A stretch of DNA of 63,845 bases, the filler included. It is 4 parts of 4 records of this genome, joined end to end, with 100 filler letters (N's around TTAATTAATTAA, not from the genome) between each part and the next. Parts side by side here need not be neighbours in the genome. Positions count along the whole stretch, not along the records: positions 14,205 to 40,894 come from SRR22947727_1300; 3 more parts are not named here. One strand, 5' to 3'. Of this stretch, positions 18,624 through 40,894 are shown piece after piece (the first letter of the stretch is position 1; each line of letters starts with the position of its first letter). A program made the position numbers and the translations under genes. The notes under the pieces are model-generated. The model worked only from the letters and a program-made list of their open reading frames with translations, was not told the DNA's origin and did no database searches.

Positions 18624-18631
18624 ATATTTTT

Positions 18632-19419: not shown

Positions 19420-19444
19420 ACTGAGTAGTTAACTAAATACTGAT

Positions 19445-21042: not shown

Positions 21043-21045
21043 TAT

Positions 21046-21624
21046 GTGTTTAAAAGAATAGAAAACGTATTATCAGAAGCAGACTACAATCAATTACACG
21101 ATACATTATCATCGTTCCAATTTGACTGGCACTACTTGCCATCATCTGTGCCACCAGATGTAATAGATGTTGTAAGTAAATCAAACTCATTTAACTTATA
21201 CGAGCCTGGACAATTTGTTCACATGTTCTACGATCAAAAACCGTTGAGTCCTTACTGGAAGTTGGTCGAACCTATTTTGAAATCACTAGATAAACCGGTG
21301 GTAGAGATGGGCAGAATCAAAGCCAATTTATTGATGCAGAATAACAGCGATAATCATGCTGTGAATTGTCCACATGTGGATAGAGATCGAGAAGGTTGGC
21401 ACAGTTTAATATATTATCTTAACGACTCCGATGGTGACACTGTATTGTTTGATAAAAAAGGCAATCAAGGCTGGGATAATTTACAAGTTCAAGACACAGT
21501 AACACCTAAGAAAAATACTGCTGTGCTGTTTGAAAGCGATCAGTATCATGCCGGAACGAATCCTATTGACAACACCAGACGAATTGTGTTAAACTTTATT
21601 TTAAAATTTAAAAATGTTATTTAA
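21046..21624 (+). CDS. 2OG-Fe(II) oxygenase superfamily protein
   Basis: HVD, IYYLNDSDGDT, H...RIVLN. Confidence 0.85.
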   Translation: MFKRIENVLSEADYNQLHDTLSSFQFDWHYLPSSVPPDVIDVVSKSNSFNLYEPGQFVHMFYDQKPLSPYWKLVEPILKSLDKPVVEMGRIKANLLMQNNSDNHAVNCPHVDRDREGWHSLIYYLNDSDGDTVLFDKKGNQGWDNLQVQDTVTPKKNTAVLFESDQYHAGTNPIDNTRRIVLNFILKFKNVI

Positions 21625-21646
21625 AAAATGACTGATAAATATTAGT

Positions 21647-21877
21647 ATGGATGATCATCGTATGCACATGGAAGAAATTAACCTAGTCGATTTATACCAA
21701 GAAGAAATTGATTTTCTTAATCAACAAAACAACTCGTTAGAAAAATCTACAGATCCTATAGACCAAAGACAGTGCTGGAAAAACGAAATTGTGATTCAAT
21801 ATTTCAAAAGAAGAATTGATGAAGAATTAGATATACAAGGTCAATTCAGAGCTCAATTGCCTAAAACTTTACATTAA
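21647..21877 (+). CDS. Phage hypothetical protein
   Basis: 76-aa ORF; TAAATA 5 nt upstream. Confidence 0.6.
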   Translation: MDDHRMHMEEINLVDLYQEEIDFLNQQNNSLEKSTDPIDQRQCWKNEIVIQYFKRRIDEELDIQGQFRAQLPKTLH

Positions 21878-22284
21878 TCGCAACTGCTGATAACTTTAAG
21901 ATACATGGAATCGTATTCCCAGTTAACACCGTGAACTTCCAATAGATATTTTTTTTGAAGTGGATATATTTCTGCTTCAGATTGAGCTATACAATCAAAC
22001 TTGGTGCCCACAGCATCATTCAAATCGTGTACATAATGCATTAACTCATGCATCAATACACCTTTGTCAAACACATTGAACATATTAAAAGTGTCTTTAA
22101 GATATATGGTGTCTGTGCTAGGATCATACAAAGCATGGATCTCACTGTCTGGTACGACATGACCAAAGTGCATTTGATTTAAACTGCTTTGACTCACCAT
22201 CTTTATTGCCGGATGTGGAATCAGAGTGTTGTAATCTGTTTCTGCACCAATCCACAATAATATAAAAGCAACCAATGTTTTCAT
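21874..22284 (-). CDS. HExxH zincin-like protein (DUF6647-like)
   Basis: ALYD....TIYL, LMHELMHYVH, C....EAEIY; start ATG 22284 with TAAATA 5 nt upstream. Confidence 0.7.
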   Translation of the reverse strand: MKTLVAFILLWIGAETDYNTLIPHPAIKMVSQSSLNQMHFGHVVPDSEIHALYDPSTDTIYLKDTFNMFNVFDKGVLMHELMHYVHDLNDAVGTKFDCIAQSEAEIYPLQKKYLLEVHGVNWEYDSMYLKVISSCD

Positions 22285-22417
22285 GCAAATATTTAAAATA
22301 AACAAGGTGTTTATTTTAGTGTCTTTTAAGTTATGTGAGTAGTTAATCCTTAATAGTATCTGATTATAATAACAGCATACTTTATTAAATATTAGTATAT
22401 TAAAAGAGGGCAACTAC

Positions 22418-25400: not shown

Positions 25401-25999
25401 TAGGTGGCGGTCACGCAACCAACCACGGATACATGACAAATCTTGACTCGGACGTGTTGGGATTGGCCACACGTGACAATAGTAACGAATACATTGATGC
25501 GGTATGGTCTTACGGATCAGGTGCTGTGTACTACTCCACAACACCAACGGACCACTACATCGGTACCAACTTTGCGGAGAATGACGCTTGGGACGCCTAC
25601 GCACTGAACAGCCTGCACTACGCAACCAGTTTGATATTCGACGGATACAGCCAGATAGATGGCACCAGTTCAGCAGATCAATTGTATGGAACCGCTGGCG
25701 ATGATGTGTTCTGGAGCAAGGACGGCGCAGACGAGATATGGTCAGGCAATGGATCAGACACATTCCTGTACACACAGACCTATCAGACTGATCCCGGATC
25801 AAACGATGTGATACTGGACTTCGACTATCAGAACGACAAGATTGACATCAGTGCCATAACAGGTGGGGCAAGTGTCTCGAGGACATTGACCAACGGCACA
25901 CTGTTCAAACTGGACACGGACAACAACGGCACATACGAGATGCAATGGGATCTGGATGACTACACAGGCACAGCAGACCAGGTGACCGTGATAACATAA
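22418..25999 (+). CDS. T1SS cargo: FecR domain + acidic coiled coil + cadherin repeats + RTX/Ca-binding C-terminus
   Basis: FecR signature (FADETTMSV.PNS.MVIDDFVYDP; VTTPVLTIGVRGT); EELEEEK heptads; cadherin YAITAGN..NAFTINSSTGAITT...LDY; GTAGDD/DGADEIWSGNGSDTF/NDVILDF; no signal peptide. Confidence 0.85.
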   Translation: MAIFTDPLAIGKITTAEQPFTIQRGNETIELSEGDFIYLDDMISAGGTAVGIAFADETTMSVDPNSTMVIDDFVYDPENPTVGSMNANVLEGNFSFVSGQIAKTGADAMKVTTPVLTIGVRGTQVAGKANTDGEENEIVLLPNEDGSVGQVMIKNDSGEVLLTEAYQATIITDPYTVPTVPVILSKDVVLKKFAKTIATTKKTEAKAKVERDTEEATKEKAEAEKEGEELEEEKEQLEEEKEQLEEEAEELEEKSEELEEEAEELEGEAKELDEKEEKVLEEKEQAEEKKEEVAEEIEELAEKLEEAPIEEREKIEQELQQLEEEFIEIEEEVQQIEQEIEVVAQEKAVVEQKVQEIEKEFAEIKEDFADIEAKVEFVEKEVLQVIEKELVIEQRVLAVEQRFEAIVQNFEKFQEEFVQEFEEFIPVEEMQQFKEEAPQDMMRDVQENVMKEFNEVVEAPQEIMEEEPKDIFAEENVEEQMQEMENNEEFQEFEKMMEEEMAPEGFNESDDVFKVDEKNQVDDQAVEQFIQEEKEKALMEDPIAQEMDNFFQEMDPDNKKIDQQVKDMIVIESQNINEWFDGAGAGINNADDFYALEDNGYWDMIDNNEDAYYDAIEADAIMDQFMYDMAEEQNINVAPWLQMPNAVTVNENLAVNETLEYVYGSDANNDQLTFSIFDDPTGKLKIVGNRITLDSAFSVTEDTTYTILLKVQDPYGASDIDSWQITVENNHSPEISNTSAVSLGEDDSIGTAVATISASDEESETITYAITAGNTGNAFTINSSTGAITTAAALDYTATASYTLTITATDAWGNATTTTQTVNVTEGEGDGIASSWVTAGDGSAGAYKQKIGYVGTGDGAGIITALGHTAEAYDANNLDTYDVIAYYNSSNGQFYPSPFSTALTTWVDDGGVLVVYDRWVNDAGLDTNLPGHNGNATTVRDSSGDDAAAYNIVDESTSNLLKYGPGGIMVDDSSAFNDDPGGDHSGNNHLGTFNIGGGHATNHGYMTNLDSDVLGLATRDNSNEYIDAVWSYGSGAVYYSTTPTDHYIGTNFAENDAWDAYALNSLHYATSLIFDGYSQIDGTSSADQLYGTAGDDVFWSKDGADEIWSGNGSDTFLYTQTYQTDPGSNDVILDFDYQNDKIDISAITGGASVSRTLTNGTLFKLDTDNNGTYEMQWDLDDYTGTADQVTVIT
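23099..23230 (+). repeat. About six degenerate 21-nt tandem repeats encoding EELEEEx heptads
   Basis: GA(G/A)(G/C)AACT(G/A/T)GAAGA.. units repeating every 21 nt. Confidence 0.7.
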
Positions 26000-26016
26000 T
26001 AAATACTGGTAATATA

Positions 26017-27753
26017 ATGAAAACTCTAATACATTACACACTGATAGCAATGATGCTCAACTGGAACATAGCCGTCTTTGCGGAAGACAGTGGAGGGTGT
26101 GAATGGGAAGTAGTGGAAGTAACTGAAACTTATATTCAAGAGAAGTGTGGAGACAATCAAGTAAGAATTAAGTCCAAACCTATTGAAGGCATGAACATTG
26201 AGATAGTTGAAGCACCCAAAAATAAAAAAAACAATCCCATAAAAGAATTCAAAGACAAAGTAGAAAAGGCTCCCAAAGTTATTGAGAAAGTTGAAAAACT
26301 TGAGAAGATAGAACAGGAAGTCATAGCCACAGAAGATAAAGTTAAAGAACATATTGAGAAAAAGAAACTGGCAGAAACACCTGTTGCAGAAACAACAAAC
26401 CCCAAAGTTAAAAAAGAAATTGCTAAAAAACAAGTGGACATTAAATCAGATGAAAAACTGGTAAAACAAGCCACAGAAAAAGCATGGTCAGATGTTGACG
26501 CTGATCAAAAAATTACATGGATGCAGTTCCATGAATTGCTACCAAGACTGATCGTTGAGAATGAAAAGATCAAAGCGGCTGAACTAGATTACGAAGCGGC
26601 TGTTGAAGCATTAAAATCAGAATACACAGCATACTATCCTCAGGTTTCTGTATCAATTGGCAACAACTGGGAAGATGATAGAACTCCTGCAAAAGGTACA
26701 TATCCCAACAACACAATCACACACGATTCTAAACAGGGCATACAAAAATCAATCACAGTCACACAGATGATCTGGGACGCAGGCAGAACCACTGCCATGA
26801 TAGACAAAGCCAAAGCAACTGCTCAACAGGCACACTATAGATTGGAACTTACAAAAGAAGATGTTGTAATAGAGGCAATCAATGCTTGGTTAAATTTACA
26901 AAAGGCTTACAACACACACGAAGCGAATAAAAAAATAGAAGCCAATGCTAAAGTTACATTGTCTATGACAATAGAAAAAGTGAAAAAAGGCGAAGGTTCT
27001 AAACTTGAACAATTACAAATTGAACAACAGTACAGAACATATCAAACTCTTTCAATGACAAGTAGATTGGGATTAGACAGTGCTATACAAAGATTTCAAA
27101 ACGTTTGGAGATTCAAACCACACAACATCGCAGGCATGCCAAAACCTTTGGCAGATGCACTTGGTATAATTCCTGTACAAGGAACTCCAGTGTCCAACAA
27201 CACAACACTGCGTATTGCCAGCATGGATGTTACTATTGCTCAAGAACAATTAAATTTTGATAGAGCAGAATTTAAACCAAGAGTGGACGGCAAACTGTCT
27301 TACACAGAGAAGGACGGTGAACTGGCAGGTGGATATGATACAAGTAATTCGCAGAAAGAAGAATGGAGAGCAGACATCACCATGACATGGAAGTTATTCA
27401 ATTTCAAGAACAGACACATGACCAATGCAGACCGTTCTCGTTTGAATGCCGCTAACTTTAGATATTCTAATGTGTTAAGAACCACACAGGAACAGTTCAA
27501 TAACGCATGGAACAACTACGTGTTGGTTGAAAAGAATCTAGCCACTCTGAAGAGAACAGTTGAGATAAATCAAGAAATGTACAAACTCACACTGGCAGAC
27601 TTCCAAGCAGGTAACTCACCCATAATGGCGGTGTTTGGTATGAAGACAGCACACTTAATGAGTGAGGTTGCGTATCTAAACGCACAGATAGATTGGCAGA
27701 TAGCAAGATATCAACTGCACAAGGTGTTAGGTGTTGTAGACCCACTTCTATAA
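26017..27753 (+). CDS. TolC-family outer membrane channel with Lys/Glu-rich N-terminal extension
   Basis: Signal peptide; AYYPQVSV, TQMIWDAGRT, AEFKPRVD, ADITMTWKLFN, YQLHKVLG outer-membrane efflux pattern. Confidence 0.87.
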   Translation: MKTLIHYTLIAMMLNWNIAVFAEDSGGCEWEVVEVTETYIQEKCGDNQVRIKSKPIEGMNIEIVEAPKNKKNNPIKEFKDKVEKAPKVIEKVEKLEKIEQEVIATEDKVKEHIEKKKLAETPVAETTNPKVKKEIAKKQVDIKSDEKLVKQATEKAWSDVDADQKITWMQFHELLPRLIVENEKIKAAELDYEAAVEALKSEYTAYYPQVSVSIGNNWEDDRTPAKGTYPNNTITHDSKQGIQKSITVTQMIWDAGRTTAMIDKAKATAQQAHYRLELTKEDVVIEAINAWLNLQKAYNTHEANKKIEANAKVTLSMTIEKVKKGEGSKLEQLQIEQQYRTYQTLSMTSRLGLDSAIQRFQNVWRFKPHNIAGMPKPLADALGIIPVQGTPVSNNTTLRIASMDVTIAQEQLNFDRAEFKPRVDGKLSYTEKDGELAGGYDTSNSQKEEWRADITMTWKLFNFKNRHMTNADRSRLNAANFRYSNVLRTTQEQFNNAWNNYVLVEKNLATLKRTVEINQEMYKLTLADFQAGNSPIMAVFGMKTAHLMSEVAYLNAQIDWQIARYQLHKVLGVVDPLL

Positions 27754-27783
27754 TATTGTCAAATCAATTAAATACTACTATAT

Positions 27784-28533
27784 ATGACAAGTTTTTTACG
27801 ACAATTATTCCGCGATAAATCAAACGCCATAATGCTATTAACAAGCAGTTTGATCATTGCCATCTGTGCGTTGGCTCCGGCCTTGTTTGTGATTATTGTG
27901 TTGAACAAGTATCTAGCATCTGGAGTTACATCCACCCTGATATCTTTGGGTGTGGGTGCCATACTATTGTTGGCATTTGAATTTGGTTTCAGACAGAACA
28001 GAGCAGGCATGATACAGCAGTTGAACATTAGGATATTCACTCCATTGTTGAATGCATATGCAAAAAAGATTAAAGAAACTCAGATCACAGGAGAACAGTT
28101 TAAAAGATTAGAAGTTGCAGGTGGAACAATTAAGGGTGCAACCGGTTCCAGCATTACTGGTTGGATATTGGATTGGCCATTTGTGTTGGCATTTCTTATT
28201 GTGCTACTCTATATCAATTGGACAGCGGCTTTGATTGCTGGGATATTCATGATCATCATGATGGTGTTAACAGCACAGAGATTGAATCTCAGTCTACAAC
28301 AGGACAGCACAGCAAATTTAGAAATATTTTTAACAGGACTAATGACAGTGGTCATCATGTCAGTGGGTGCGACACAAATTATCGCAGGTTCATTGGACGT
28401 GGGATTATTAATAGGTTCCAACATATTGGCGGCAAGAGCACTGCAAGGTGCTAACAAATATGCCAAAGCAAAGGAGGCAATAGAAAAACGTGACCGAGCA
28501 ACAGCAGAAATCATCAATTTCATCAAACAATAA
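27784..28533 (+). CDS. T1SS ABC transporter transmembrane domain only (no nucleotide-binding domain)
   Basis: ALAPALFVIIVLNKYL, FEFGFRQ.R, LDWPF, GATQIIAGSLDVGLLIGSNILAARAL typical of T1SS ABC membrane domains; no Walker A/B. Confidence 0.8.
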   Translation: MTSFLRQLFRDKSNAIMLLTSSLIIAICALAPALFVIIVLNKYLASGVTSTLISLGVGAILLLAFEFGFRQNRAGMIQQLNIRIFTPLLNAYAKKIKETQITGEQFKRLEVAGGTIKGATGSSITGWILDWPFVLAFLIVLLYINWTAALIAGIFMIIMMVLTAQRLNLSLQQDSTANLEIFLTGLMTVVIMSVGATQIIAGSLDVGLLIGSNILAARALQGANKYAKAKEAIEKRDRATAEIINFIKQ

Positions 28534-29215
28534 ATTCTTTGGCTTGTTGACAAGTCTATTTGTTGTGTTCTTTGTATGGATGTCATTTTCCAAAGTCGAT
28601 ATAACTTCTGTCGCCAACGGACTGGTAATACCTGAAAAAAATATCACAACACTTGGCACAATGGTTACAGGAGAAATTGTGAAAGTGAACCACAAGCAAG
28701 GAGACGTGGTTAAAAAAGGCGACATCATAATCACAATTAATCCTGGAGTAGGATACGAACCTTATCACATACGAGCAAACATAGATGGGAAGATACAACA
28801 ACTTACATTTAAAAATCCAGGCTCTGTGGTAAAACAAGGTGACGCACTGGCAGTGCTGGTACCCCTAGATCAAAAATTAATTGTTCAAGGACAATTGCAA
28901 ATAAAAGACAGAGGCTATGTAGAAGTAGGACAAACAGCAAAAATTAAATTGGCAAGTTCAGAAGCATTCACATACCTTCCAATAGTAGCCAAAATAATTT
29001 CCATATCTCCTGATGCTGTACAAGGACAAGCAATGTCGTTCTATGAAATAGAATTAGAATTAGATTCACAGGCTTTTGCCAACGGAGACTTGCAGTACAA
29101 ACTAGTGCCTGGTGTACAAGTACACGTGTTTATCTTGACTGGAGAACGTACAATATTGAGTTACGTGACAACACCTTTTCACAACAGCATAGGACAGGCC
29201 CTACAAGAGAGATAA
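28490..29215 (+). CDS. Miniature HlyD-family membrane fusion protein
   Basis: TM anchor, lipoyl halves (GDVVKKGD...IRANIDGKI), ISPDA, LVPGVQV..FILTGERTILSY...ALQER C-terminus. Confidence 0.87.
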   Translation: MTEQQQKSSISSNNKFFGLLTSLFVVFFVWMSFSKVDITSVANGLVIPEKNITTLGTMVTGEIVKVNHKQGDVVKKGDIIITINPGVGYEPYHIRANIDGKIQQLTFKNPGSVVKQGDALAVLVPLDQKLIVQGQLQIKDRGYVEVGQTAKIKLASSEAFTYLPIVAKIISISPDAVQGQAMSFYEIELELDSQAFANGDLQYKLVPGVQVHVFILTGERTILSYVTTPFHNSIGQALQER

Positions 29216-29216
29216 C

Positions 29217-29573
29217 ATGGAACAAAAGAAATTAACAATCAGGGAAAGATGGCGTAAGGCCATGACTGCGGACAACATGGTTGATCTCAGTGTTGACATC
29301 TTCCTCATTGTGTTCGACGTGTTGAGCTCTCCCATACTGATCGTCATGAGAATTGTGCGTTGGATATTGGCCAAGTTCGTCAATGACCATGTAAAGAGTT
29401 TTATCAAGAGGATAGTGCATTGGTTCTTGGACAACAGGAAGATCAGACTAGAACGAGGACAGAACATATTCCGTTACTACTGGTACCTGTGGATGTTGAG
29501 TCCTTTTATTGTTTTTGCGTTGTGGATGCTGATAGCAGTCACAATAGGATTAAGACAAGGTGCAGGACTGTAA
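29217..29573 (+). CDS. Small membrane protein within the T1SS-cyclase cassette
   Basis: 118 aa, hydrophobic segments, TAATG coupling to cyclase. Confidence 0.65.
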   Translation: MEQKKLTIRERWRKAMTADNMVDLSVDIFLIVFDVLSSPILIVMRIVRWILAKFVNDHVKSFIKRIVHWFLDNRKIRLERGQNIFRYYWYLWMLSPFIVFALWMLIAVTIGLRQGAGL

Positions 29574-31498
29574 TGAAGATATTCACAAGCATATGGATGG
29601 TGATAGTGTTTGCGATTGTGCTGACAGGAATCAGGATAAACAACAGCGACACAGTAAAAATTATTAGATATAAGACTTGGGACAAATTTCAAACAATTCA
29701 ACCAAGACAGATGGTAAGTGATTCTGTCACTGTTGTAAACATCACAGAACAAGATATTAAGACGTATGGACAATGGCCATGGCCCAGACATGTGATGGCT
29801 ATGCTACACGCAGAGTTGTCTGATGCAGGTGCAATCCTTGTGAACTACAATATAATGTTTGCTGAACCAGACAGAATGAGTGGTGTTGAATATCTAAAAT
29901 CAATGCCTATGACCAATAATTTGCGAGAGCAATTGGGACAAGCATTGTTGGACACAGATGCAATATTCTCCATAGTGTTGAAAGAATCTAAGAAAGCCAT
30001 TTTAATGATGAGTGTTAAAAACACTGCTGACACAAACTTACCCAGCACAACACAGATCATAGAAAAAGGCAACGTGAAGCCATGGTTATACGAGTATGAA
30101 GGCATAGTGTCCCCAAATGCAAAAGTTTCCGTAGGTGCAACAGGCATGGGTGTGAATGTTACTTCACCGGAACCAGATGCTGTTGTGAGAAAGATGCCTG
30201 TGTTAATACGTGTGGGAGATAAGATATATCCCTCTATGCTACTAGAGAATGTTAGACTTTTAAATAAATCAAAAAGAATCAAAGTCATAGCAAAACAACA
30301 CGGCATAGACGAAGTGCTTGTGAGCAAGAAGGCAGGTATACCTGTGAATCATAATGCAGAAATGTATATCAACTATGCAGACCCTTCAATGTATGTTAAT
30401 GTGTCAGCCACAGATATACTGACAGGCAATTACAACGAAAACAAAGTTAAAGGCAGAATTATTGTTATAGGTTTGGATGCCGCAGGATTGAGTGTGTTGA
30501 AATATACACCGCATGGACTTACAACAGATCAAATGATTACTGCCCAATCATTGGATACATTGTTAACAGGCAAATATTTGTTGCGTACACCACAAGCAGA
30601 CACATATGAAATTGCGTTCCTGGCGTTGTTATTATTGCTGTTGATATTAGTACTGCCTAGAACCAGTGTGTTGTTGGCTGTACCTCTTTTATTATTTGTG
30701 GAAGTAGGTGTTGCCTACGGAGCATTCACGGCATACACTAACAAAGGATTTCTTGTAGACCCATCTTGGATAATGTTGTCTGTGTTTTTAATTTGGTCTC
30801 ATTCTGTGTACAACAACTTTGCGACACAGAGCAGATTGAAACAACAGATCAAGAAACAGTTTGAACACTACCTTGATCCTGGCATGGTTAAAAAATTACA
30901 AAAGGATCCCAGCCTACTTAAACTGGGAGGCGAGACAAAGAACATGACTTTCTTGTTCTGTGACATCAGGGGCTTCACACCTATCAGTGAGAAGTACAAA
31001 GGCAATCCAGCAGGACTCACAAAACTTATTAATAGATTCTTGACACGCATGACAGATGTTATAATCTCAAATGGTGGAACAATAGACAAGTTTATGGGTG
31101 ACTGTATTATGGCATTCTGGAACGCACCTATTGAAAATAAAAAACACAGAGAACTAGCAGTTAAAAGTTCTTTGGAAATGACTGTGGCATTGGCAGAATT
31201 GAATATGCATCTACAAGCAGAAGGACTTCCACAGATCAACATAGGAATAGGAATCAACACAGGCGATGCATTGGTGGGTAACATGGGATCGGAACAGAGA
31301 TTTGATTACTCTGTGATTGGCGATGCAGTTAATCTAGCAAGTAGATTAGAGAGCTCATCTAAAACATTAGGCAAAACCATAGTGATAGGTGAGAACACAA
31401 GACACACAATAGAAACAGTTTACCCGTTTGAGTACATTGACAGCATCACAGTCAAAGGTAAGACTGAAAATATAAAAGTTTATACTATTCCTTTATAG
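29573..31498 (+). CDS. CHASE2-domain class III adenylate cyclase
   Basis: CHASE2 GQWPWPR, PEPDAVVRK; TM helices; FCDIRGFT, IDKFMGDCIMAFWNAP, GINTG, RFDYSVIGDAVNLASRLES, VKGK; start ATG 29573. Confidence 0.93.
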   Translation: MKIFTSIWMVIVFAIVLTGIRINNSDTVKIIRYKTWDKFQTIQPRQMVSDSVTVVNITEQDIKTYGQWPWPRHVMAMLHAELSDAGAILVNYNIMFAEPDRMSGVEYLKSMPMTNNLREQLGQALLDTDAIFSIVLKESKKAILMMSVKNTADTNLPSTTQIIEKGNVKPWLYEYEGIVSPNAKVSVGATGMGVNVTSPEPDAVVRKMPVLIRVGDKIYPSMLLENVRLLNKSKRIKVIAKQHGIDEVLVSKKAGIPVNHNAEMYINYADPSMYVNVSATDILTGNYNENKVKGRIIVIGLDAAGLSVLKYTPHGLTTDQMITAQSLDTLLTGKYLLRTPQADTYEIAFLALLLLLLILVLPRTSVLLAVPLLLFVEVGVAYGAFTAYTNKGFLVDPSWIMLSVFLIWSHSVYNNFATQSRLKQQIKKQFEHYLDPGMVKKLQKDPSLLKLGGETKNMTFLFCDIRGFTPISEKYKGNPAGLTKLINRFLTRMTDVIISNGGTIDKFMGDCIMAFWNAPIENKKHRELAVKSSLEMTVALAELNMHLQAEGLPQINIGIGINTGDALVGNMGSEQRFDYSVIGDAVNLASRLESSSKTLGKTIVIGENTRHTIETVYPFEYIDSITVKGKTENIKVYTIPL

Positions 31499-31628
31499 AA
31501 TCTTTATCTATTTCTTTTACAGCAACAACTTCTTTGGGTTCATATGTTTCGTCCCAGCAACAGTCATCTCGGGAAACACACGTGCTCTCTACATATACTT
31601 TTTTGCTCTTCTTTTGATCTTCGTACAT
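31485..31628 (-). CDS. 47-aa Cys-containing peptide
   Basis: AAGGAG RBS before ATG 31628; MYEDQKK...TCVSRDDCCWD. Confidence 0.55.
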   Translation of the reverse strand: MYEDQKKSKKVYVESTCVSRDDCCWDETYEPKEVVAVKEIDKDSIKE

Positions 31629-31640
31629 TGTATTCTCCTT

Positions 31641-31769
31641 TTGTAAAATAATACTTGTAAATTTACTTATAGTAAACTTATAGTAAATTTTGTCGAAAAT
31701 CAATGTCTAAGGTGTAAATTGTGTTGAATGTTTGTAAATTTAAATTTACAAAATTTACAAATAGTAAAT
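31641..31769. repeat. Cluster of GTAAA(T) motifs with an 11-bp tandem repeat and a 22-bp perfect palindrome
   Basis: ACTTATAGTAA x2 (31665-31686); TTTGTAAATTTAAATTTACAAA (31731-31752). Confidence 0.65.
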
Positions 31770-31996
31770 TATTTTTTCTTTTCTCTAGCAGTTTTGACTT
31801 TGGTCTGTAATCTTATCAAATCGTTGTCGAGCAACCTTATCCTATCTATGAGTTTGATTAGTGTTGCTGACGTAGAACTCAACTTGGGTGTGATTTCTGT
31901 TGTAATAAACTTCCACAGGAAGTAAATGAAGTATGCTAGAAAGAATACAGCAACAATAGGAAATCCGTAATCGTTTATGAGTGTAACTATGTCCAT
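31769..31996 (-). CDS. Small single-TM coiled-coil protein (YvrJ/BhlA-like)
   Basis: INDYGFPIVAV + TM + LIDRIRLLDNDLIRL. Confidence 0.7.
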   Translation of the reverse strand: MDIVTLINDYGFPIVAVFFLAYFIYFLWKFITTEITPKLSSTSATLIKLIDRIRLLDNDLIRLQTKVKTAREKKK

Positions 31997-32277
31997 TAGT
32001 CTTTCCTCGCATCTGACTTGCCGTCTGCTCTAGCCACCCTGTCTGTGTCTATTGGCAATCCCAGTTGCTCGGAAACCTCCTGGTCTATTTTGAGTATGTC
32101 GTTGTTCATGGTCTTTACTCTGTTGTCCAGTTGTGAGATCACGCTCTCGATGAACTTGATGGAGTTTACTATGCCATTCAGGATGTATTTTATAATGAAC
32201 AGTATGAACACACCCATTCCCACCGTGGCGGCAATTGGTAATCCTAGCTCTGCTACTAATTGAAAGAACTGTGTCAT
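31996..32277 (-). CDS. Small single-TM coiled-coil protein, paralogue of downstream gene
   Basis: VAELGLPIAA + TM + LDNRVKTMNNDILKI; TATAAATA 8 nt upstream of ATG 32277. Confidence 0.7.
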   Translation of the reverse strand: MTQFFQLVAELGLPIAATVGMGVFILFIIKYILNGIVNSIKFIESVISQLDNRVKTMNNDILKIDQEVSEQLGLPIDTDRVARADGKSDARKD

Positions 32278-32320
32278 TATGTGTGTATTTATAGGCAGTT
32301 GTACACTAGGAATTAAAAGA

Positions 32321-32349
32321 TTGACAACCAAAAATACACCTGCTATACT
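32321..32349 (+). promoter_or_regulatory. Sigma70-type promoter
   Basis: TTGACA-N17-TATACT with extended TG. Confidence 0.65.
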
Positions 32350-32409
32350 GTGACTGCACAGTTTAATATTAGGATTTAATCGGTAAATACTAAAAAGTAG
32401 GCTAGAACT

Positions 32410-32676
32410 ATGAAAAAACATACCAGAAGCATATTAGACGAATTAAGAAACATTGGCAGAATTAACGATGTTGAAGCCTTTATTGAGACCACAGGCTCAA
32501 ATATCATCGAAAGTGCAGTGAATCTGCTCAATACTATAAAAGAAAATTATCCAGAGGACACAGCACAAGAACTGGAGAGAAGATTTTTAAACAGTATTCG
32601 TAACAAAGAAGCCAAAAAGTTTCAAGTTGGTGTGAAGAAGATAATTGAAAGTAAAAAATTAGATGACAATTCTTAA
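32410..32676 (+). CDS. Phage hypothetical protein
   Basis: 88 aa; first gene of a long co-directional block. Confidence 0.7.
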   Translation: MKKHTRSILDELRNIGRINDVEAFIETTGSNIIESAVNLLNTIKENYPEDTAQELERRFLNSIRNKEAKKFQVGVKKIIESKKLDDNS

Positions 32677-33415
32677 AGAAGGCGGCAACATATTCAAAGA
32701 CCCCAACGGAGAACTAGCCACTCAGAGAATTAATCAAGCAGATGTGGCTCCCACACTTGCCTGGTTGGAAAAAATCACAGGATTAGACCTACAAAGTAAT
32801 ATGTTGGGCACAACAGGAAAAGCACCAACATCGGGTGACTTGGATGTTGCAGTGGATCAAAGTAAGATTTCAAAAGACCAGTTGGCAGACACATTAACAC
32901 AATGGGCTATAAAGAACAAACAAGATCCTAAACTGTGGGTAAAGAAGAGTGGCATCAGTGTTCATTTTAAAACTCCTATCAGAGGCAGTGCAAAGAATGG
33001 ATATGTCCAATCAGATTTAATGTTTGGAGATCCAGACTGGATGCGTTGGAGTCTTCAAGGTGGACAACCTGGCTCACCATACAAAGGTGCAGACAGACAC
33101 GTGATGATGGCATCAATTGCCAAACCACTTGGATTCAAATGGAGTCACAAAGCAGGATTATTAAACAGAGACACAAATGAACCTATCACTAAAGATCCTA
33201 ACAAGATTGCTGAACTGTTATTAGGCAAAGGTGCAACTGCAAATGATTTAAACACAGTGGAATCTATTCATGCAAAAATAAAAAATAGATCAGACTATGA
33301 TACGTTGGTTGCTGATGTAAAAGATTCATTTGCTAAAGTGGGTAAGACATTGCCAGAAAGTATTAAAGATCCAATTGGATGGTACAGAGCAATACTAAAC
33401 AAAATTAAAATATGA
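32663..33415 (+). CDS. Putative Pol-beta-superfamily nucleotidyltransferase
   Basis: LGTTGK...SGDLDVAVD (hG[ST]..DxD) and YVQSDLM third acidic residue. Confidence 0.65.
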   Translation: MTILKEGGNIFKDPNGELATQRINQADVAPTLAWLEKITGLDLQSNMLGTTGKAPTSGDLDVAVDQSKISKDQLADTLTQWAIKNKQDPKLWVKKSGISVHFKTPIRGSAKNGYVQSDLMFGDPDWMRWSLQGGQPGSPYKGADRHVMMASIAKPLGFKWSHKAGLLNRDTNEPITKDPNKIAELLLGKGATANDLNTVESIHAKIKNRSDYDTLVADVKDSFAKVGKTLPESIKDPIGWYRAILNKIKI

Positions 33416-34545
33416 GACTAGTAGAATTTAAAGAAGTTGACAAAAAGAATGTCGCTCTCAAAGAATCAAGAATTCAACATGCAGAAGATTTAATTTTCTG
33501 GGAAGGTTCTAGAGGAGCCATAAGAGCAATTGAACAATTACAATCATTAAGCAAAAGCACACAGTCACTCACAATTAAATGGGACGGTTCACCTGCTGTG
33601 GTGTTTGGCAGAAATCCTAATGGAGAATTTATTTTTACAGACAAGTCAGGCTTTGTGGCAAAAGGTTATGACGGTAGAGCAACTAACTCAGCAGACTTAA
33701 AAAGTGCTATTGTGGGAAGAGGAAAAGATCCTACAAAAAAGAAAGCACAGGCACAGTATGCTTCTAAAATGGCATCAGTGTTTGATACTGTGCAACAAGC
33801 AGTGCCTGAAAACGTTCAAGGATATTTTGTTGGAGACATGTTGTATTTTCAAACTCCTAAAAAAGCAGGCGACAAATTTATATTCAAACCCAATGTGGTT
33901 CAGTATGCAGTGGATGTTAACAGCGAGATAGGACAACAGATTGCCAACAGCAGTGTGGGTGTTGTTGTGCACCACAAAATGACTGAAGACGGTAAAGTAT
34001 TACCTATTAATGATTTAGATATGATTCAAGGCAGTGTGTTGGCAATACCACCTACCACACTCAATAAGAAAGATCCAATACAAGTAAAAGGATTGGATCA
34101 ATTAAAATCACTACTCTCCAACAGTGGAGCAGAAATAGACAAATTGTTGAACAAGAACAAGATAGCAGAAATGAAACTGACTGATCTACCCAACATTTTA
34201 TACACCTACACCAACAGCAAAGTGGACACAGGATTAAACAGATTGGGTGAAGATTTTTTGAGATGGTTGGCGGCAAGTGCTGTGAGTCAACCCAAAAGAA
34301 TTAAAATTAAAGAATATGTAACAGCAAACATACAAGCATTCAGCAAACTGTGGATTTTGGTTGGCGGAATAATGAAAGTCAAAGATTCAATCATCAATCA
34401 GTTGGATCAAGCACAAGGCGACATAACAGCAACAATCAACGGCAAACCAGGTGGTGAAGGCTATGTTTTAGGCTCTCCAGAGGGTAATATTAAATTAGTG
34501 AAACGTTCTGGCTTCACGAAAGCCAACAGAGCGATAAATAGATAG
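33412..34545 (+). CDS. Putative ATP-dependent ligase-fold protein (DUF6267-like)
   Basis: KWDG (motif I), FVGDMLY (III), EGYV (IV), IKLV (V). Confidence 0.6.
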   Translation: MRLVEFKEVDKKNVALKESRIQHAEDLIFWEGSRGAIRAIEQLQSLSKSTQSLTIKWDGSPAVVFGRNPNGEFIFTDKSGFVAKGYDGRATNSADLKSAIVGRGKDPTKKKAQAQYASKMASVFDTVQQAVPENVQGYFVGDMLYFQTPKKAGDKFIFKPNVVQYAVDVNSEIGQQIANSSVGVVVHHKMTEDGKVLPINDLDMIQGSVLAIPPTTLNKKDPIQVKGLDQLKSLLSNSGAEIDKLLNKNKIAEMKLTDLPNILYTYTNSKVDTGLNRLGEDFLRWLAASAVSQPKRIKIKEYVTANIQAFSKLWILVGGIMKVKDSIINQLDQAQGDITATINGKPGGEGYVLGSPEGNIKLVKRSGFTKANRAINR

Positions 34546-34555
34546 GGAGAACAAA

Positions 34556-34945
34556 ATGAAAGCAAAAGAATTTATTAGAGAATTTAGAGACATAGATCCA
34601 GCAGATGATCCAAATGCAGGTATGGATCAAGAGTTCAAACAGGATCCTATATTTCATCAATTGGGTAAAATATTAGACAGCAGAGGCAATCCAAATCCGT
34701 TAGACACAGTGATAACAGATGATGGCAAAAAATTTAAAGTAACATTTAAACAAGCCACAGTGTTGAGAAGATTATTAACTGCACCCAGTGTTAAACCTAA
34801 TATTAAAGCACAGTTTACAAAAGATCTTCAACAAAGTCAAACACTTGAAAAGTATTTACAAGCAGATGACATGGTAGAGTTGTTTATTTCTACGTATAAT
34901 CCAGAAAAAACAGAACCTAGTCCATACACCAAATACGAAAACTAA
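34556..34945 (+). CDS. Putative internal head protein
   Basis: MKAKEFIRE N-terminus; GGGAGA RBS; TAAATA at 34535. Confidence 0.65.
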   Translation: MKAKEFIREFRDIDPADDPNAGMDQEFKQDPIFHQLGKILDSRGNPNPLDTVITDDGKKFKVTFKQATVLRRLLTAPSVKPNIKAQFTKDLQQSQTLEKYLQADDMVELFISTYNPEKTEPSPYTKYEN

Positions 34946-34970
34946 GACAGAGGATTTGTCCGTTTCAATT

Positions 34971-35873
34971 ATGACGACAAAACTATCAACACACACTGAC
35001 ACTTCACTGGACTTTCTAAGTTCACTGTTTGAAGCACGTATGACTCGTGACTCACAGGATCATAAAGTTCTTACCTACACAGATTGTGCTGAAAGATTGT
35101 ATATCACACTGTTGATACTGCAACTGTTGAATCAATATCCCACATACAGACAGTTGGCTTCCAAGTATTCCAGAGACACAAAACATTCAAACTACGATAG
35201 ATTCAGAATGTATTCCACAGATCTATACAACTTTGTGTATTTTGTGACAGGTGACGAAGAAGCAATGAACAAATTGAAAGATCCAGACGGTGCCAAAGCA
35301 ATGAGGAAGAAAAGCAGATTCCCCACAATGGCATTCAATAGATATTTGTCAGCATTACAACAGGGATTGATAGCACCCAGTATCATGCAGGTGTTTTTAA
35401 ATATTGAATCAGGACTTAACATACAAAACACAGACTACAAGTCAATCAGAAGAAGTCTATTTCAATTCAGCACACTGTCTACACGTGACAAACAAAATCT
35501 AGTTACAAGACTGCTTCATGCCGCCAGAGCCAAATTGAGAAGTTCAGACAGCATAGAGCATTTGGAAAAATTAGCCTCAGACAGAAATCTTGAAACAGGC
35601 AGAGTGAACGATGCTGAACCAAAAGTGAGTGTGCCAGATGTGAGTACTCAAGGCAAAGACCTTGCACTGTATAGATACATCATGGGTGGCAAAAATCTTG
35701 TGGCAGTGAAACGTTTTATAGATTCAGCACTGTCAGGCAAATCAATACCTTCTGCGATTGTGCAGGCATATCTACCAGCAATTCAACTGATAGATGATAT
35801 TGTGAAAGCCGGACCAGCATACGTGAGTGTGCTAAAAGCACTGCAATCTAGAGCCAAAAAGAGCCGTAAATAA
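34971..35873 (+). CDS. Phage hypothetical protein
   Basis: About 300-aa ORF in late block; GAGGA upstream. Confidence 0.75.
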   Translation: MTTKLSTHTDTSLDFLSSLFEARMTRDSQDHKVLTYTDCAERLYITLLILQLLNQYPTYRQLASKYSRDTKHSNYDRFRMYSTDLYNFVYFVTGDEEAMNKLKDPDGAKAMRKKSRFPTMAFNRYLSALQQGLIAPSIMQVFLNIESGLNIQNTDYKSIRRSLFQFSTLSTRDKQNLVTRLLHAARAKLRSSDSIEHLEKLASDRNLETGRVNDAEPKVSVPDVSTQGKDLALYRYIMGGKNLVAVKRFIDSALSGKSIPSAIVQAYLPAIQLIDDIVKAGPAYVSVLKALQSRAKKSRK

Positions 35874-35903
35874 TATAGTATCACACAATTATTACCAAAA
35901 CCT

Positions 35904-35939
35904 TATAAATACTTGCATATACACTTCGGAGCGAAGTGT
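35904..35939 (+). promoter_or_regulatory. T4-type late promoter TATAAATA with 5' hairpin
   Basis: TATAAATA 35904-35911; ACACTTCG-GAG-CGAAGTGT 35921-35939. Confidence 0.7.
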
Positions 35940-35968
35940 GTCATTAACAAGAAAAAAGGAGAAAAATA

Positions 35969-36304
35969 ATGGCATCATTAACATCAAATGCAAAAGCAAA
36001 AGCAGGCAACGGAACTGGTCCTAGAACTAGAATCATCAACCTTGCCAAATCAAACATGACACAAGCGGAATTAGACGCGGCAATCCGATACCTACAAGCA
36101 GGTGACGTTGCAGGCACTAACGATGCACACACAGTGGCAGGTGTTTCAGTACTTACAGAAAACGGTGTTTTCACTACTGGTGTAACTGACGCAGTACAAG
36201 TAGCAATCCAAGGCACAGGCGTAGCAACAATGGCGACTGACTTTGGAACAGGTTCAACTGGTATCACAGCAACTTTAATTGCTGAATATATCGACAGAGC
36301 ATAA
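35969..36304 (+). CDS. Small Ala/Gly/Thr-rich putative virion (decoration-type) protein
   Basis: AAGGAG RBS, own late promoter and terminator. Confidence 0.7.
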   Translation: MASLTSNAKAKAGNGTGPRTRIINLAKSNMTQAELDAAIRYLQAGDVAGTNDAHTVAGVSVLTENGVFTTGVTDAVQVAIQGTGVATMATDFGTGSTGITATLIAEYIDRA

Positions 36305-36323
36305 TTCTTAATTGAATAACTGA

Positions 36324-36356
36324 AAGAGCGTTCAGGAAACTGGACGCTCTTTTTTT
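36324..36356 (+). terminator. Rho-independent terminator
   Basis: AAGAGCGTTCAG-GAAA-CTGGACGCTCTT + T tract. Confidence 0.88.
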
Positions 36357-36392
36357 GTGACTTATAAGTACGTATGCTAGGAACAACAGCAT

Positions 36393-36797
36393 ATGAGATA
36401 CAAAATTTTATCATTATTAGATATAACAAAAACTGGAGCTCGTCGTGATCGTAACAGAGACAGTAAGACAATTGATCAATTCAGCAACTACATGTCATTT
36501 GAAAATTCTTTGCAACTGCGATCCAATATGAACATTGTTTCCGGACCCTCAGCAGAACGACAAGACATCACCAATTTGATATTTGGCGACAACTATCAGG
36601 GAGAACACATGGTGTGGACAGTGATAGTTGAACCTGACTTTCCTGACGCTGTCAATATGGATACACTGAAACAAGACTTTGATTTGGTACCCATGTTGAT
36701 TGGACTGGATGAATCTGTCAATATTAAAACAGGTGTGTTCAGAACCATGGACACGGACCATACCAACATCATGTTTATTAAACAGTTAGATAACTGA
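36393..36797 (+). CDS. Phage hypothetical protein
   Basis: 134 aa; TATAAGTA at 36363. Confidence 0.7.
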   Translation: MRYKILSLLDITKTGARRDRNRDSKTIDQFSNYMSFENSLQLRSNMNIVSGPSAERQDITNLIFGDNYQGEHMVWTVIVEPDFPDAVNMDTLKQDFDLVPMLIGLDESVNIKTGVFRTMDTDHTNIMFIKQLDN

Positions 36798-36902
36798 GAC
36801 TAACAAAGAATAAATAAATGTATAAGGCTTATTGAGACATAAAATACAGGCAACAACTTCCAAGAGAAATAAAATTGATATAATAACCGGAAGAGAGAGA
36901 AA

Positions 36903-37136
36903 ATGGCTACAGAGCTAGAGAAACAAAATTTAGAAGCACACGTTGATTTGTGTGAACAAAGATACAAAAACCTTGAATCTCGTTTGGATAAAATCGAGGA
37001 GAAGGTGGAAGATATCCACACAGACATTCAACATGGCAACAAAAGCATGGTGAAAGTGATCATTGGTGCCACAGGCACAATAGTTGCTGGACTGTTATCC
37101 ACTATTGTTGTGTTATTATTAAAATTTCCAGGTTAA
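36903..37136 (+). CDS. Coiled-coil protein with C-terminal TM (XhlA/holin-like)
   Basis: LESRLDKIEEKVEDI followed by hydrophobic helix. Confidence 0.6.
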   Translation: MATELEKQNLEAHVDLCEQRYKNLESRLDKIEEKVEDIHTDIQHGNKSMVKVIIGATGTIVAGLLSTIVVLLLKFPG

Positions 37137-37186
37137 TTCAAACACCCCCCACAACTGCTAAATATTCATACTAGACAGGGTAAAGC

Positions 37187-37555
37187 ATGAAAATTACAGA
37201 AATAATTACAGAATCAGTTGTTCAGATTTGGTCACGTACCAAAGCAGGTCAAATGGTTAGAAAGTACAGATGCACAGCAGGACCTAGAAAAGGTCGTGTG
37301 GTCAGTAAACCTTCTGTGTGTACACAGCCTAAAAAAATGTCATCTGTGATGGCAATCAAAAAAGCCAAAGCAAGATCTGGATCCACAATGAAAATTAAGA
37401 GAACTAGAACAAAGAAAACTGCTGGAGCAAGTATTAGACTAGGCAAACTGAATAGACCCAGTACATCAAGAAACAGACCAAACAGAAGAAGAAGTGTCAG
37501 TAGAAAAACATTCAGAAGAAGCGGTGGCGGAAAAAGGAAAGCAATCAGCACATGA
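37187..37555 (+). CDS. Highly basic putative DNA-binding internal head protein
   Basis: MKITEIITE N-terminus; Arg/Lys-rich; two Cys. Confidence 0.7.
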   Translation: MKITEIITESVVQIWSRTKAGQMVRKYRCTAGPRKGRVVSKPSVCTQPKKMSSVMAIKKAKARSGSTMKIKRTRTKKTAGASIRLGKLNRPSTSRNRPNRRRSVSRKTFRRSGGGKRKAIST

Positions 37556-37929
37556 AGATAAAAGATATCACAGAAACGCCGTACCTACAAAAAACACTGA
37601 ACACATTGGGCAGTCAGCAAAAGACAGGAGCACCTATACCTCCAAACAAATTACCCAAAGGGCCAATTAAATCAGGGTCAGTGAAAGCACCACTGAAACA
37701 AACCAATACTCAAGCACAGCAACAAATAGTCAAGCCAGGTAAAACTGTGCCCATGCCAACAGGGGCAAACAAAGAAACAGATTATGAAGTGGACAGAGTC
37801 CAAGGTGATCAAGTCACAATGAAAACCAAAACTCCGTCAGCTCAAGCACCTCAATCAATCACAGTGAATAAAAAAGAATTAGATCCTGTGATTACCAATC
37901 TACAACGTAGACAAAAAGCAACACAATAA
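37552..37929 (+). CDS. Putative head-associated protein
   Basis: MKIKDITE N-terminus; ATGA overlap. Confidence 0.65.
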   Translation: MKIKDITETPYLQKTLNTLGSQQKTGAPIPPNKLPKGPIKSGSVKAPLKQTNTQAQQQIVKPGKTVPMPTGANKETDYEVDRVQGDQVTMKTKTPSAQAPQSITVNKKELDPVITNLQRRQKATQ

Positions 37930-38144
37930 TGAAAATAAACGAACTTGTACAAGATTTTGTAATTCAAACTTCCAATGAAGAACAACACATATTGGATAAA
38001 CTAAAAGAAATGACAAATATGGATAATTTTTTAGAAAGAGAACAAGAAGTGATTCGAAATCTTATTAACAAGAGTTTAGTACGTCGCATTGAACGTGGCA
38101 ATAAAACATTGGTGGTTGCAAATGGATCTACAGAAACTATCTAA
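37929..38144 (+). CDS. Small phage protein
   Basis: MKINELVQ N-terminus; TAATG coupling. Confidence 0.65.
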   Translation: MKINELVQDFVIQTSNEEQHILDKLKEMTNMDNFLEREQEVIRNLINKSLVRRIERGNKTLVVANGSTETI

Positions 38145-38547
38145 AAAACTTAAATTATTCATAGACCAACAAGCAGAGCAGATGTGCCTACCCATTCAGC
38201 ACGGCAACAGTCTGCGTATCAAAAACTTTGTGGTACGTGAAAACAGCATGGGATTTTTGTTGTACGATATAAAAAACCATAAACAGGTTACCACAACATT
38301 CACAAAAACAGCGGCACTGGCTATGGCAAGGCAGATGTCCCAAAACAAGCAGGACAGTTTACAATACATAGGATCCACAGATGATCGAATACACCACAAA
38401 TACAATGAATGTGTGTTTTACAAGCACACAATAGCCAGAACCGATGATGATATCAAGCGAGAATCTGCTAAAATACGATACGATATTGCATGGGAAGATT
38501 TACTCAAGTTAAGAGACACCCTGGACGACTACATATTTGATAAATAA
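38122..38547 (+). CDS. Phage hypothetical protein
   Basis: ATG 38122 preceded by GGTGG. Confidence 0.65.
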   Translation: MDLQKLSKKLKLFIDQQAEQMCLPIQHGNSLRIKNFVVRENSMGFLLYDIKNHKQVTTTFTKTAALAMARQMSQNKQDSLQYIGSTDDRIHHKYNECVFYKHTIARTDDDIKRESAKIRYDIAWEDLLKLRDTLDDYIFDK

Positions 38548-38567
38548 ATTAACAAAGGAACACATTA

Positions 38568-39758
38568 ATGAAAATAGAGCAATTTAGACACCAAGCAACA
38601 ACTGAACAGTTAAACGATAGACTGTCAAAAGTGTTTGGATCAGCAATCAAACTAGAACAATTCACAGATGCACAGTTAGAAACTGCTCGTACAAGTGTGT
38701 TAGACAAGATTGCGAATTTAGAACAAAATGAGTCCTTTGATGGGTTAAGTCACAACGAAGACTACCATAAGCAAAAAATGTTTTTAGACGTAATAGATTC
38801 TGCCATCAACGACAGAACAGTAGAAGCAAAATTACAAAACGATATTTTAGTCCAAGCAGATGAAATAATTGGTGACTACATTGACATGGACAAAGAAGCA
38901 TTAAAAATGAACAAGCAGGCTGTTATTGCTGACATAGAAAAAAGACAAGCAACAGCACAAGGTGACGAATCATCTGCTTTACATTATGCAAAACAAAAAG
39001 TAGAACAAGATTTCGACGATACTGGAGCAGAAATTGAAAAATCAAATGAAGGTAATCAATTTGCACAGGCAGTACAAAAAGCCAAAGCGGCAGGCATGAA
39101 AGCAGGTGATAAATTCAAAGTAGGCGATAAAGAATTTACACTGCAAGATGCAGAAGAATTATTAGCAAACACAATGAACGAAAAATCAAAGCCAGACTTC
39201 CTAGACGTGGACAAAGATGGTGATAAAAAAGAACCTATGAAAAAAGCAATCAAAGACAAAAAGACAGCAGTCAAAGAAGGCGCAGAAGAATCTGCTCAAT
39301 TAGTAATGGCATCCAAAGACATGGTTGATAAAGTTACGGGTTGGATGGAAGACACAGCATCTATGCAGACTGAAACTATGTTAGAATTAGCAGACGCTAT
39401 TAGAGATGAAATGGGCGTGGAAAAATCAGAAGCATTTACAAATTCAGTGAAGCCAAGTTTAGAATCTTTATACACTTCACTTGAAGCAACAAGAGAAGCA
39501 CTAACAGGTGGCGTAGCCATTCTGACAGGCGAACAAGCACCAGACACAATTGGTGCGGATAGCGACAGTGAAGAACCAGCAATGGAACCTACAACAGATG
39601 ATGATGCAGATATGCCAGATCAAACAGATGATTTTTCAGCAAGCGAACCTGCAACAGGCGGCGAGGAACCAGCAGACAGAAGTAAAAGAGAATCATTCAT
39701 TCAGATGTCTAGAAGACTAGCAGAAACACTTTCAACAAAGTCAAAAAAAAAGGCTTAA
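38568..39758 (+). CDS. Acidic putative prohead core/scaffold-like protein
   Basis: Helical and acidic; several x-x-E|G/S candidate cleavage sites; DVDKDGD motif; TAAATA 38541; ends in A AAA AAG. Confidence 0.65.
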   Translation: MKIEQFRHQATTEQLNDRLSKVFGSAIKLEQFTDAQLETARTSVLDKIANLEQNESFDGLSHNEDYHKQKMFLDVIDSAINDRTVEAKLQNDILVQADEIIGDYIDMDKEALKMNKQAVIADIEKRQATAQGDESSALHYAKQKVEQDFDDTGAEIEKSNEGNQFAQAVQKAKAAGMKAGDKFKVGDKEFTLQDAEELLANTMNEKSKPDFLDVDKDGDKKEPMKKAIKDKKTAVKEGAEESAQLVMASKDMVDKVTGWMEDTASMQTETMLELADAIRDEMGVEKSEAFTNSVKPSLESLYTSLEATREALTGGVAILTGEQAPDTIGADSDSEEPAMEPTTDDDADMPDQTDDFSASEPATGGEEPADRSKRESFIQMSRRLAETLSTKSKKKA

Positions 39759-40081
39759 TTTCTGAAGCCTCTGACACAGAGTTAATTCAAGTTCTTAGAA
39801 ATTTAATCAGCAGTGCTGATTCACGTGATCAAAAAGCATATTTGAGTTTTGATGCGTTGAACAACATAATGACTAATGTCGGAGGCTTCTCAATCAATCA
39901 CGACAGTTTTAAAAATCTCTACAATAAAAGTTCTTCAATCAAAAAAATGATCAAAACATTTGACAAGTCAGGTATCACACTTGACACTGACGCTGAAGAA
40001 CCAAACATTCCCACAAAAAAAGGTGATCGCTCTGCTGGTCTAAACACAATGGCAAAGAGAGCAACCAAAAAACGCACTTAA
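39752..40081 (+). CDS. ORF in -1 frame lacking own ATG; probable frameshift extension of 38568-39758
   Basis: Frame open from 39713; GLISEASDTELIQVLRNL...MAKRATKKRT. Confidence 0.55.
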   Translation, partial: GLISEASDTELIQVLRNLISSADSRDQKAYLSFDALNNIMTNVGGFSINHDSFKNLYNKSSSIKKMIKTFDKSGITLDTDAEEPNIPTKKGDRSAGLNTMAKRATKKRT

Positions 40082-40181
40082 TACTTGACTTCTCACCAAT
40101 AGTATTATAATATTAAGAGATGGATAGAACCAAAGAACAAATACTTCATGACATTTTATCGTTTTGTAGTACAATAGTACT

Positions 40182-40894
40182 ATGAGCAAATTTTGGATGT
40201 TAGGTAATAAAATTACCAGCGAGATGTATGAGCGTGAACGGTTCGTCAAGGTGGCCCATGACATGGGCATTGACTTCAACGTGGTATTCTCGGACGAGAT
40301 AGACCTACTGGTGTCACGTGACGACAGGCGATCCATACGATACCGAGGTGAGGCAATAGCATTGCCCAACGTGTGCCTGGCAAGGACAGGAAGTGGCACG
40401 GGATTCTACAACCTATCAGTGCTGAGACAGTTGGAGAGGTTGAACGTGTTGACCCTGCCCAACTCAGCGGCGATAGAATCTTCCAAGGACAAATTCTACA
40501 GCAACCAGATACTGGCACAGGCGGGACTGCCCATACCCAAGACCATGCTGGCACGTTTCCCGGTCTCCCATGAACTGGTGGAGAAACAGATCGGTCTGCC
40601 ATGCGTGATCAAGGTGGTGACGGGTTCACACGGTGCGGGAGTGTACTTGTGCGAAACACTGAAACAATTTTTGGATCTGCAGGAACTGATAGCATCACTG
40701 GACTCAAAGAACTCCATGATCATCCAGGAGTACGTCAAGGAGTCCGCTGGGCGAGACCTGAGGGTGATCGTCGTGGGCGGCAAGGTGATAGGCGCCATGG
40801 AGAGATCCAGCACGGACGGGAACTTCCGGGCCAACGTCTCCAGGGGCGGGGTGGCCAAGACATATGCAATAGATGACGAGATGGAGATGCTGGC
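40182..40894 (+). CDS. rimK: RimK-family ATP-grasp alpha-L-glutamate ligase (3' truncated)
   Basis: DKF..QILAQAGLPIPKT, GSHGAGV, IIQEYV, GRDLRVIVVGG, FRANVSRGG. Confidence 0.9.

Follow-up and report, generated by a model that had tools for sequence, protein, structure and literature searches.

In an uncultured marine giant (jumbo) phage we have identified a conserved recoding site, a run of nine adenines (A9) at the end of a late gene whose 396-aa product we call the carrier. Recoding at this site very probably takes place and would yield, beside the carrier, a 504-aa fusion in which a start-less -1 frame adds a winged-helix-like domain, the cargo. The site itself is real and conserved: an A run lies at the frame transition in 110 of 113 distinct start-less junctions of related phages, and the remaining three have six A's. 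We propose that host RNA polymerase realigns on the nine A:T pairs and inserts one A, some products then continuing into the -1 frame, and that a ribosomal -1 slip on the embedded heptamer A_AAA_AAG probably adds to this slippage.

Layout of the junction and its surroundings

The window, which is the whole stretch of 63,845 nucleotides analysed here, consists of joined contigs that differ greatly in GC content. The contig bearing the junction has a GC content of mostly 35-40%, against 49-59% in the other contigs, and was probably binned wrongly; the bacteria on either side are therefore no guide to its host. Its close relatives are IMG/VR contigs. Three near-complete outgroup relatives measure 328-355 kb and each carries a T4-type gp23 capsid gene; no gp23 match was found in five partial contigs or in G011, all six of which are incomplete, and the nearest genome (G001) gave no match to the carrier.

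The preliminary description had reported the carrier frame, the slippery heptamer and an open -1 frame with no ATG nearby, and all of these coordinates were confirmed (Table 1). The -1 frame stays open between 39713 and 40081, and one shift joins 395 carrier codons to the extension, giving 504 codons. The A9 is the sole run of nine or more A's on either strand of the window. The hairpin that had been noted behind the heptamer is present; a stimulatory role for it did not hold up, as it starts 16 nt behind the heptamer, folds no better than expected to a significant degree (z of -1.2 to -1.75) and has been lost from close relatives. By eye, and in close relatives only, a GGCTT/AAGCC stem starts at the heptamer's last base (39749-39772), and this stem, taken with the T run, is scored as terminator-like on the minus strand.

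Several products of the late gene cluster upstream of the carrier start, on inspection of their N-termini, with MKI/MRL-x-(E/D) leaders resembling head-targeting propeptides, a role that is putative. Elsewhere on the phage contig, positions 22418-31498 encode a cadherin/RTX-repeat protein with a FecR domain, outer-membrane efflux and HlyD-type secretion parts, and a CHASE2 adenylate/guanylate cyclase. SAM decarboxylase, AlgH-like, PLP aminotransferase class I/II and RimK-like genes lie at 14157-14729, 17883-20623 and 40182-40880, together with what we take to be a groEL-like fragment.

Table 1. Positions of the features in the window
Feature	Position	Strand	Remark
Phage contig, low GC, between N spacers	14205..40894	.	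Neighbours are unrelated higher-GC contigs
Late gene cluster	32410..38547	+	First gene matches phrog_11854 virion structural protein
Shine-Dalgarno-like AAAGGA of carrier gene	38554..38559	+	Sequence
Carrier ORF, 396 aa	38568..39758	+	Ends TCA AAA AAA AAG GCT TAA
A9 run (TCA AAA AAA AAG), recoding site	39743..39751	+	
In-phase heptamer A_AAA_AAG	39746..39752	+	Within the A9 run
-1 frame extension, 109 codons	39752..40081	+	Without start
0-frame stop TAA	39756..39758	+	
I-S-E, candidate prohead-protease site (L/I-X-E)	39758..39766	+	[ILV]xE conservation; motif as in passages of PMC9026906
Hairpin CTCTG-ACA-CAGAG	39769..39781	+	Present, not conserved
First TTG (39842) and first ATG (39869) of the -1 frame	39842..39871	+	Atlas record begins at the ATG, missing helix 1
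Promoter-like site directly after -1 frame stop	40085..40113	+	9/12 consensus match only

Conservation and history of the site in related phages

The related group comprises 3896 proteins at E 1e-5 among 7994 scored. Four viral scans returned 275 loci, of which 267 had both genes (the eight without the pair were dropped), and collapsing duplicates left 175 distinct junctions. In 110 of these an A8-A10 run is followed by a -1 frame without ATG; three (L102, L112 and L114, a single lineage) have only A_AAA_AAG, that is, six A's plus G; the other 62 have a cargo with its own ATG and no run of eight or more (14, 8 and 40 in frames 0, +1 and -1, respectively). The conserved run and the start-less frame support the earlier proposal of a 504-aa fusion made by a programmed -1 shift.

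Among the aligned rows carrier identity falls as low as 34%. Within the 110 run-bearing junctions the run numbers nine A's in 101, ten in seven and eight in two, and it keeps the same codon phase in 107. The codon preceding KKK ends in A in 107 of the 110, though TCA accounts for only 767 of 1962 Ser codons (39%), and the run can be followed by G, C or T. In the 724 kb of flanks, stretches of at least nine A's are rare (9 observed vs 52-57 expected), and eight of these nine are a second copy of the motif. An in-phase X_XXY_YYZ heptamer is present in all 113 start-less junctions.

Nine loci (L034, L052, L056, L057, L066, L075, L230, L257 and L269) carry a second TCA AAA AAA AAG 46-67 nt before the carrier stop. 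The -1 frame of this second motif closes in 4-5 codons, and a slip there would remove the final helix and add a third product; not every such run, therefore, leads to a long product. L108 contains two copies of the carrier end and the cargo gene, separated by 1.2 kb, the second of them fused to an exonuclease-like start; duplication or misassembly may explain this.

Trees were built without the junction columns (FastTree, 150 rows; IQ-TREE quick, 80 rows). The run-bearing clade (SH-aLRT 88) is nested inside ATG-type outgroups, whose two genes are mostly coupled through ATGA or TAATG overlaps, and the ATG state changes four times on the tree, three of these changes being forced by starred branches. 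Rooted on the freshwater-type ATG group, this topology implies that the run was gained once and that an own ATG came back about three times; the cargo is an ancestrally free gene. Every reversion adjoins forms that stop with TGA, and such a stop places a GTG in the -1 frame. In revertants KKK is gone or the run is interrupted by synonymous changes; they have acquired a leader (M-K/R-x-x-E, for example MKIFE or MRVSE) and often a Shine-Dalgarno-like site (56% vs 0%).

Proposed polymerase slippage and its alternatives

Both polymerase and ribosome may slip at this site, and either would produce the same junction, KKK-GLISE. Passages of PMC3711429 discuss both mechanisms for poly-A sites. Slippage is described as efficient at nine A/T (parts of PMC5009743 and PMC1088944) and ribosome sliding as weak on A9-A10 (parts of PMC4363877); PA5oct depends on the host polymerase, according to a portion of PMC7318152. 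From the sequences we lean towards polymerase slippage on the A9 as the dominant event, since the run stays at nine A's, stimulators are not conserved and the A9 of a second gene stands in other codon phases. The shift announced in the preliminary description stands as programmed, and the ribosomal cause assigned to it must be qualified, run-length conservation pointing at least as much to the polymerase.

The second gene was found by listing all A9 runs in ten records; it lies outside the window (L293:1348-3008 and L283:1338-3010, both on the minus strand, and L369-L448). It encodes about 500 aa with hydrophobic N-terminal stretches, has no PHROG or Pfam match, and carries an A9/A10 site giving alternative C-terminal tails. 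Eight of 80 loci ran off, and 54 distinct ends were obtained, with the conserved tail in the -1 frame in 28, in frame in 17 and missing in nine. All 28 of the -1 frame tails stand behind A9 or A10; seven of them retain a run of exactly nine A's whose phase offers no AAG, and 11 have the run in another phase. In three A10 sequences the more constrained tail is in the +1 frame, where loss of one A would be needed (synonymous/nonsynonymous counts of 5/4, 6/2 and 3/2 for the +1 tails vs 2/6, 1/5 and 1/3, from three sequences with fewer than ten substitutions per pair). A near-identical virus, whose contig holds L004 and L383, carries both A9 sites. A possible third recoding site, judged by its sequence, is the A10 of L287:751-2474 (G007), which ends a 258-codon frame (phrog_28018) and is followed by a 324-codon -1 frame with its first ATG 54 codons in. 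S-K-K-K is also encoded on A9/A10 within other genes (L286:1305-2129, minus strand, and the centre of L298), where a slip would truncate the product.

The same fusion could instead arise mainly through a programmed -1 shift of the ribosome on A_AAA_AAG, with the adjacent stop and the re-pairing of a third lysine codon as aids; we give this reading a real but minority chance. Conservation of the heptamer in homologues, which had been proposed as a check, was borne out, with A_AAA_AAG in phase in 102 of the 113 start-less junctions, though AAG makes up only 25% of Lys codons. In 99 of 110 junctions the run ends no more than 4 nt from the 0-frame stop, the single lineage with a bare heptamer fits the ribosome alone, and only tRNA-Lys(UUU) appeared in the related tRNA loci scanned. 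Against this, AAG is missing from 11 of the 113 junctions, the two additional 5' A's are conserved, and the second gene retains its A9 in phases that offer no AAG. Nor was a conserved stimulator found: Shine-Dalgarno-like sequences occur upstream in 16% of 95 rows vs 32% in control windows, and 3' folding, with a mean z of -0.85 in one window of 95 rows, gave z of -0.2 to -0.6 across offsets (46 rows, pseudoknot-free folding), no lower than in ATG-type genes and with scattered helix starts. Unstimulated heptamers work at only 2-10 times a background near 0.05%, according to passages of PMC4066793.

It is improbable that re-initiation, at a non-canonical codon or at the internal TTG or ATG, yields the cargo as a protein of its own, with the run a by-product of the SKKK tail. 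The window does have TAATT, the geometry of the ancestral TAATG overlap, and in the outgroups ATGA/TAATG overlaps link the two genes; a GTG covers the stop in 15 of 113 start-less junctions and some near-cognate start codon is available in 46. The other 67, however, contain no ATG, GTG, TTG, CTG, ATT, ATC or ATA, and a Shine-Dalgarno-like site before the stop-overlapping codon was found in none of 95. Initiation at the internal codons would remove the helix at cargo residues 4-23, which is confidently predicted and conserved, E4 and L10 reaching 90% or more, and the TTG at 39842, which had been named as a potential independent start, proved to be an ordinary hydrophobic position after this helix. 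KKK also disappears wherever ATG returns, and other KKK triplets in carrier genes mostly use other codons.

Independent assemblies show the same A9 and no homopolymer error, the concern raised when the site was first described. The run recurs in three IMG/VR contigs of the same or a near-identical virus (L001, L002 and L004) and in six metagenome contigs encoding identical or almost identical proteins (L303-L308). Searching metagenomes with the cargo gave 58 loci: A9 in 55, A11 in one, an own ATG in one and no junction in one. RNA-library contig X17 crosses the run as A9 with no gap, bearing in mind that contigs drop minor variants, and X19 extends 15 nt past it without a gap. In several runs the cover of RNA contigs thins or ends near the A9, and X15 ends at 39751; as the end of X15 at the last A could reflect a graph branch, oligo-dT priming or low cover, we did not use it as evidence. 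DNA-level phase variation or assembly error, by which some genomes with an extra A would encode a plain fusion, is highly improbable, for although A runs mutate in replication (passages of PMC1088944) and runs of 8, 10 and 11 A's occur, in-frame carrier-cargo fusions number none among the 175 junctions, 328 carrier segments and 35 longer proteins (these being cargo with C-terminal modules), the 10- and 11-A cases retain the -1 offset, and no indel appears at the A9 in contigs from eight public runs.

Carrier, cargo and known systems

The carrier is predicted to consist mostly of long helices with disordered acidic parts and an acidic linker, with a net charge of -34 (pTM 0.38). It is homologous to the PA5oct virion protein gp247 (HMM E 1e-23, hhalign 97%), a match reached for the window's carrier through L078. 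The gp247 record has an ESI-MS/MS note, in a mass spectrometry list that includes seven non-virion enzymes. Neither carrier nor cargo of the window gave a tblastn match in annotated phages or a Pfam match, and PHROG matches of the carrier span just a 30-residue motif. The term head-core-like used for this protein survives in part: its homologue is a virion protein, but one encoded about 70 kb from the portal-protease-capsid module, and no core or scaffold match was found. A role as T4 prohead core or scaffold (gp22, gp67, gp68) was rejected on this distance, on the lack of a match between the carrier and PA5oct gp330, gp332 or gp333, and on the carrier's one strict L/I-X-E site in 396 aa, where many would be expected.

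The cargo comprises a winged-helix-like domain at about residues 1-80 (counted from 39755), a disordered linker and a conserved M-A-x-x-A tail. Three to four helices and a small wing are predicted (pLDDT about 90 over residues 11-80). Structure matches are mostly winged-helix domains, the best at Z 6.7, below 8, a level that speaks for a common fold and not for DNA binding; the MCM8 WH is among the top ones (Z 6.4, rmsd 3.2, 68 aligned). The Atlas record of the cargo starts only at residue 39, so gene callers likely truncate it. In PA5oct, gp246 adjoins gp247, its record also has an ESI-MS/MS note, and it is the best of 132 segments for the cargo yet a weak one (E 0.008-0.011), unsupported by hhalign (0.2%); we regard it as the probable positional orthologue.

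In 55 ATG-type relatives the free cargo has a short N-terminal leader ending L/I/V-x-E, as in the neighbouring late genes. Fused forms have lost the leader's start and retain [ILV]xE behind the shift site in 113 of 113 junctions, which upholds I-S-E as a candidate cleavage site and suggests head loading in the style of Gag-Pol followed by release by a protease. Propeptides with L/I-X-E are capsid-targeting and gp21 cleaves after this motif, according to passages of PMC9026906. By analogy, loading and release of the cargo are probable. The carrier would replace the cargo's own leader and enter the prohead, pulling the winged-helix-like cargo in at a sub-stoichiometric ratio, with the slip rate setting its copy number; the head protease would then free, after I-S-E, a small, slightly basic internal protein (net +5) of about 105 residues that may bind DNA. 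In one outgroup lineage (P0122-P0156, L077) the free cargo has varied C-terminal modules at E-containing motifs (250-529 aa).

The mechanisms involved are known, and the protein family and this use of recoding are undescribed. In a literature search in which subscription papers mostly lay outside the scope, we found no description of the site and no productive slippage in a structural gene of a tailed phage. We tentatively suggest that a widespread clade of aquatic jumbo phages may exploit stuttering of the host polymerase on A9 as a general dosing switch across several genes, here for Gag-Pol-style packaging, and that a DNA-binding cargo gave up its start and leader, rides the carrier into the head, is cut free there, and has reverted to a free gene at least three times. 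The site shows an evolutionary switch, running in both directions in an abundant group of uncultured phages, between a free gene with a leader and a recoded fusion. Its natural variants (A9G, A9C, A10, A8G, A6G and GTG-bearing forms) allow the division of labour between polymerase and ribosome at A-rich sites to be tested.

Thermus thermophilus dnaX and the IS orfA-orfB genes likewise have a coding A9 that is avoided elsewhere, two products sharing one N-terminus and no need for RNA stimulators (passages of PMC1088944, PMC3711429 and PMC5009743); in contrast to them, our site lies in a late gene of a tailed phage, the slip extends the product and does not truncate it, and slippage is proposed. 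E. coli dnaX has the same in-phase heptamer A_AAA_AAG (part of PMC3711429), whereas at our site no upstream Shine-Dalgarno-like element or downstream hairpin is conserved and the run is longer than the heptamer needs. As in the T3/T7 capsid extension, A2, A118/A500, PSA and lambda G-GT, a fraction of a virion protein would gain a C-terminal domain by a change of frame (passages of PMC5009743), but the carrier is not a major capsid, tail shaft or tail chaperone protein, and the added part is winged-helix-like, not Ig-like, descends from a free gene and carries a cleavage-like motif where the two parts meet. The cargo would ride a structural carrier into the particle at a set ratio, like retroviral Gag-Pol (part of PMC5009743), and be cut free like the T4 internal proteins with a capsid-targeting sequence and gp21 cleavage at L/I-X-E (part of PMC9026906); in contrast, our system shows no positive homology to Gag or T4 IPI-III, and its cargo contains no known enzyme. 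A further counterpart is PA5oct gp247 with gp246, where, in contrast to the window, the genes are separate (TAA then GTG), no A run is present and the similarity of the cargo is weak; the carrier is homologous, the next gene is of similar size with an I-L-V-E leader, and an exonuclease gene lies close behind, as in the relatives.
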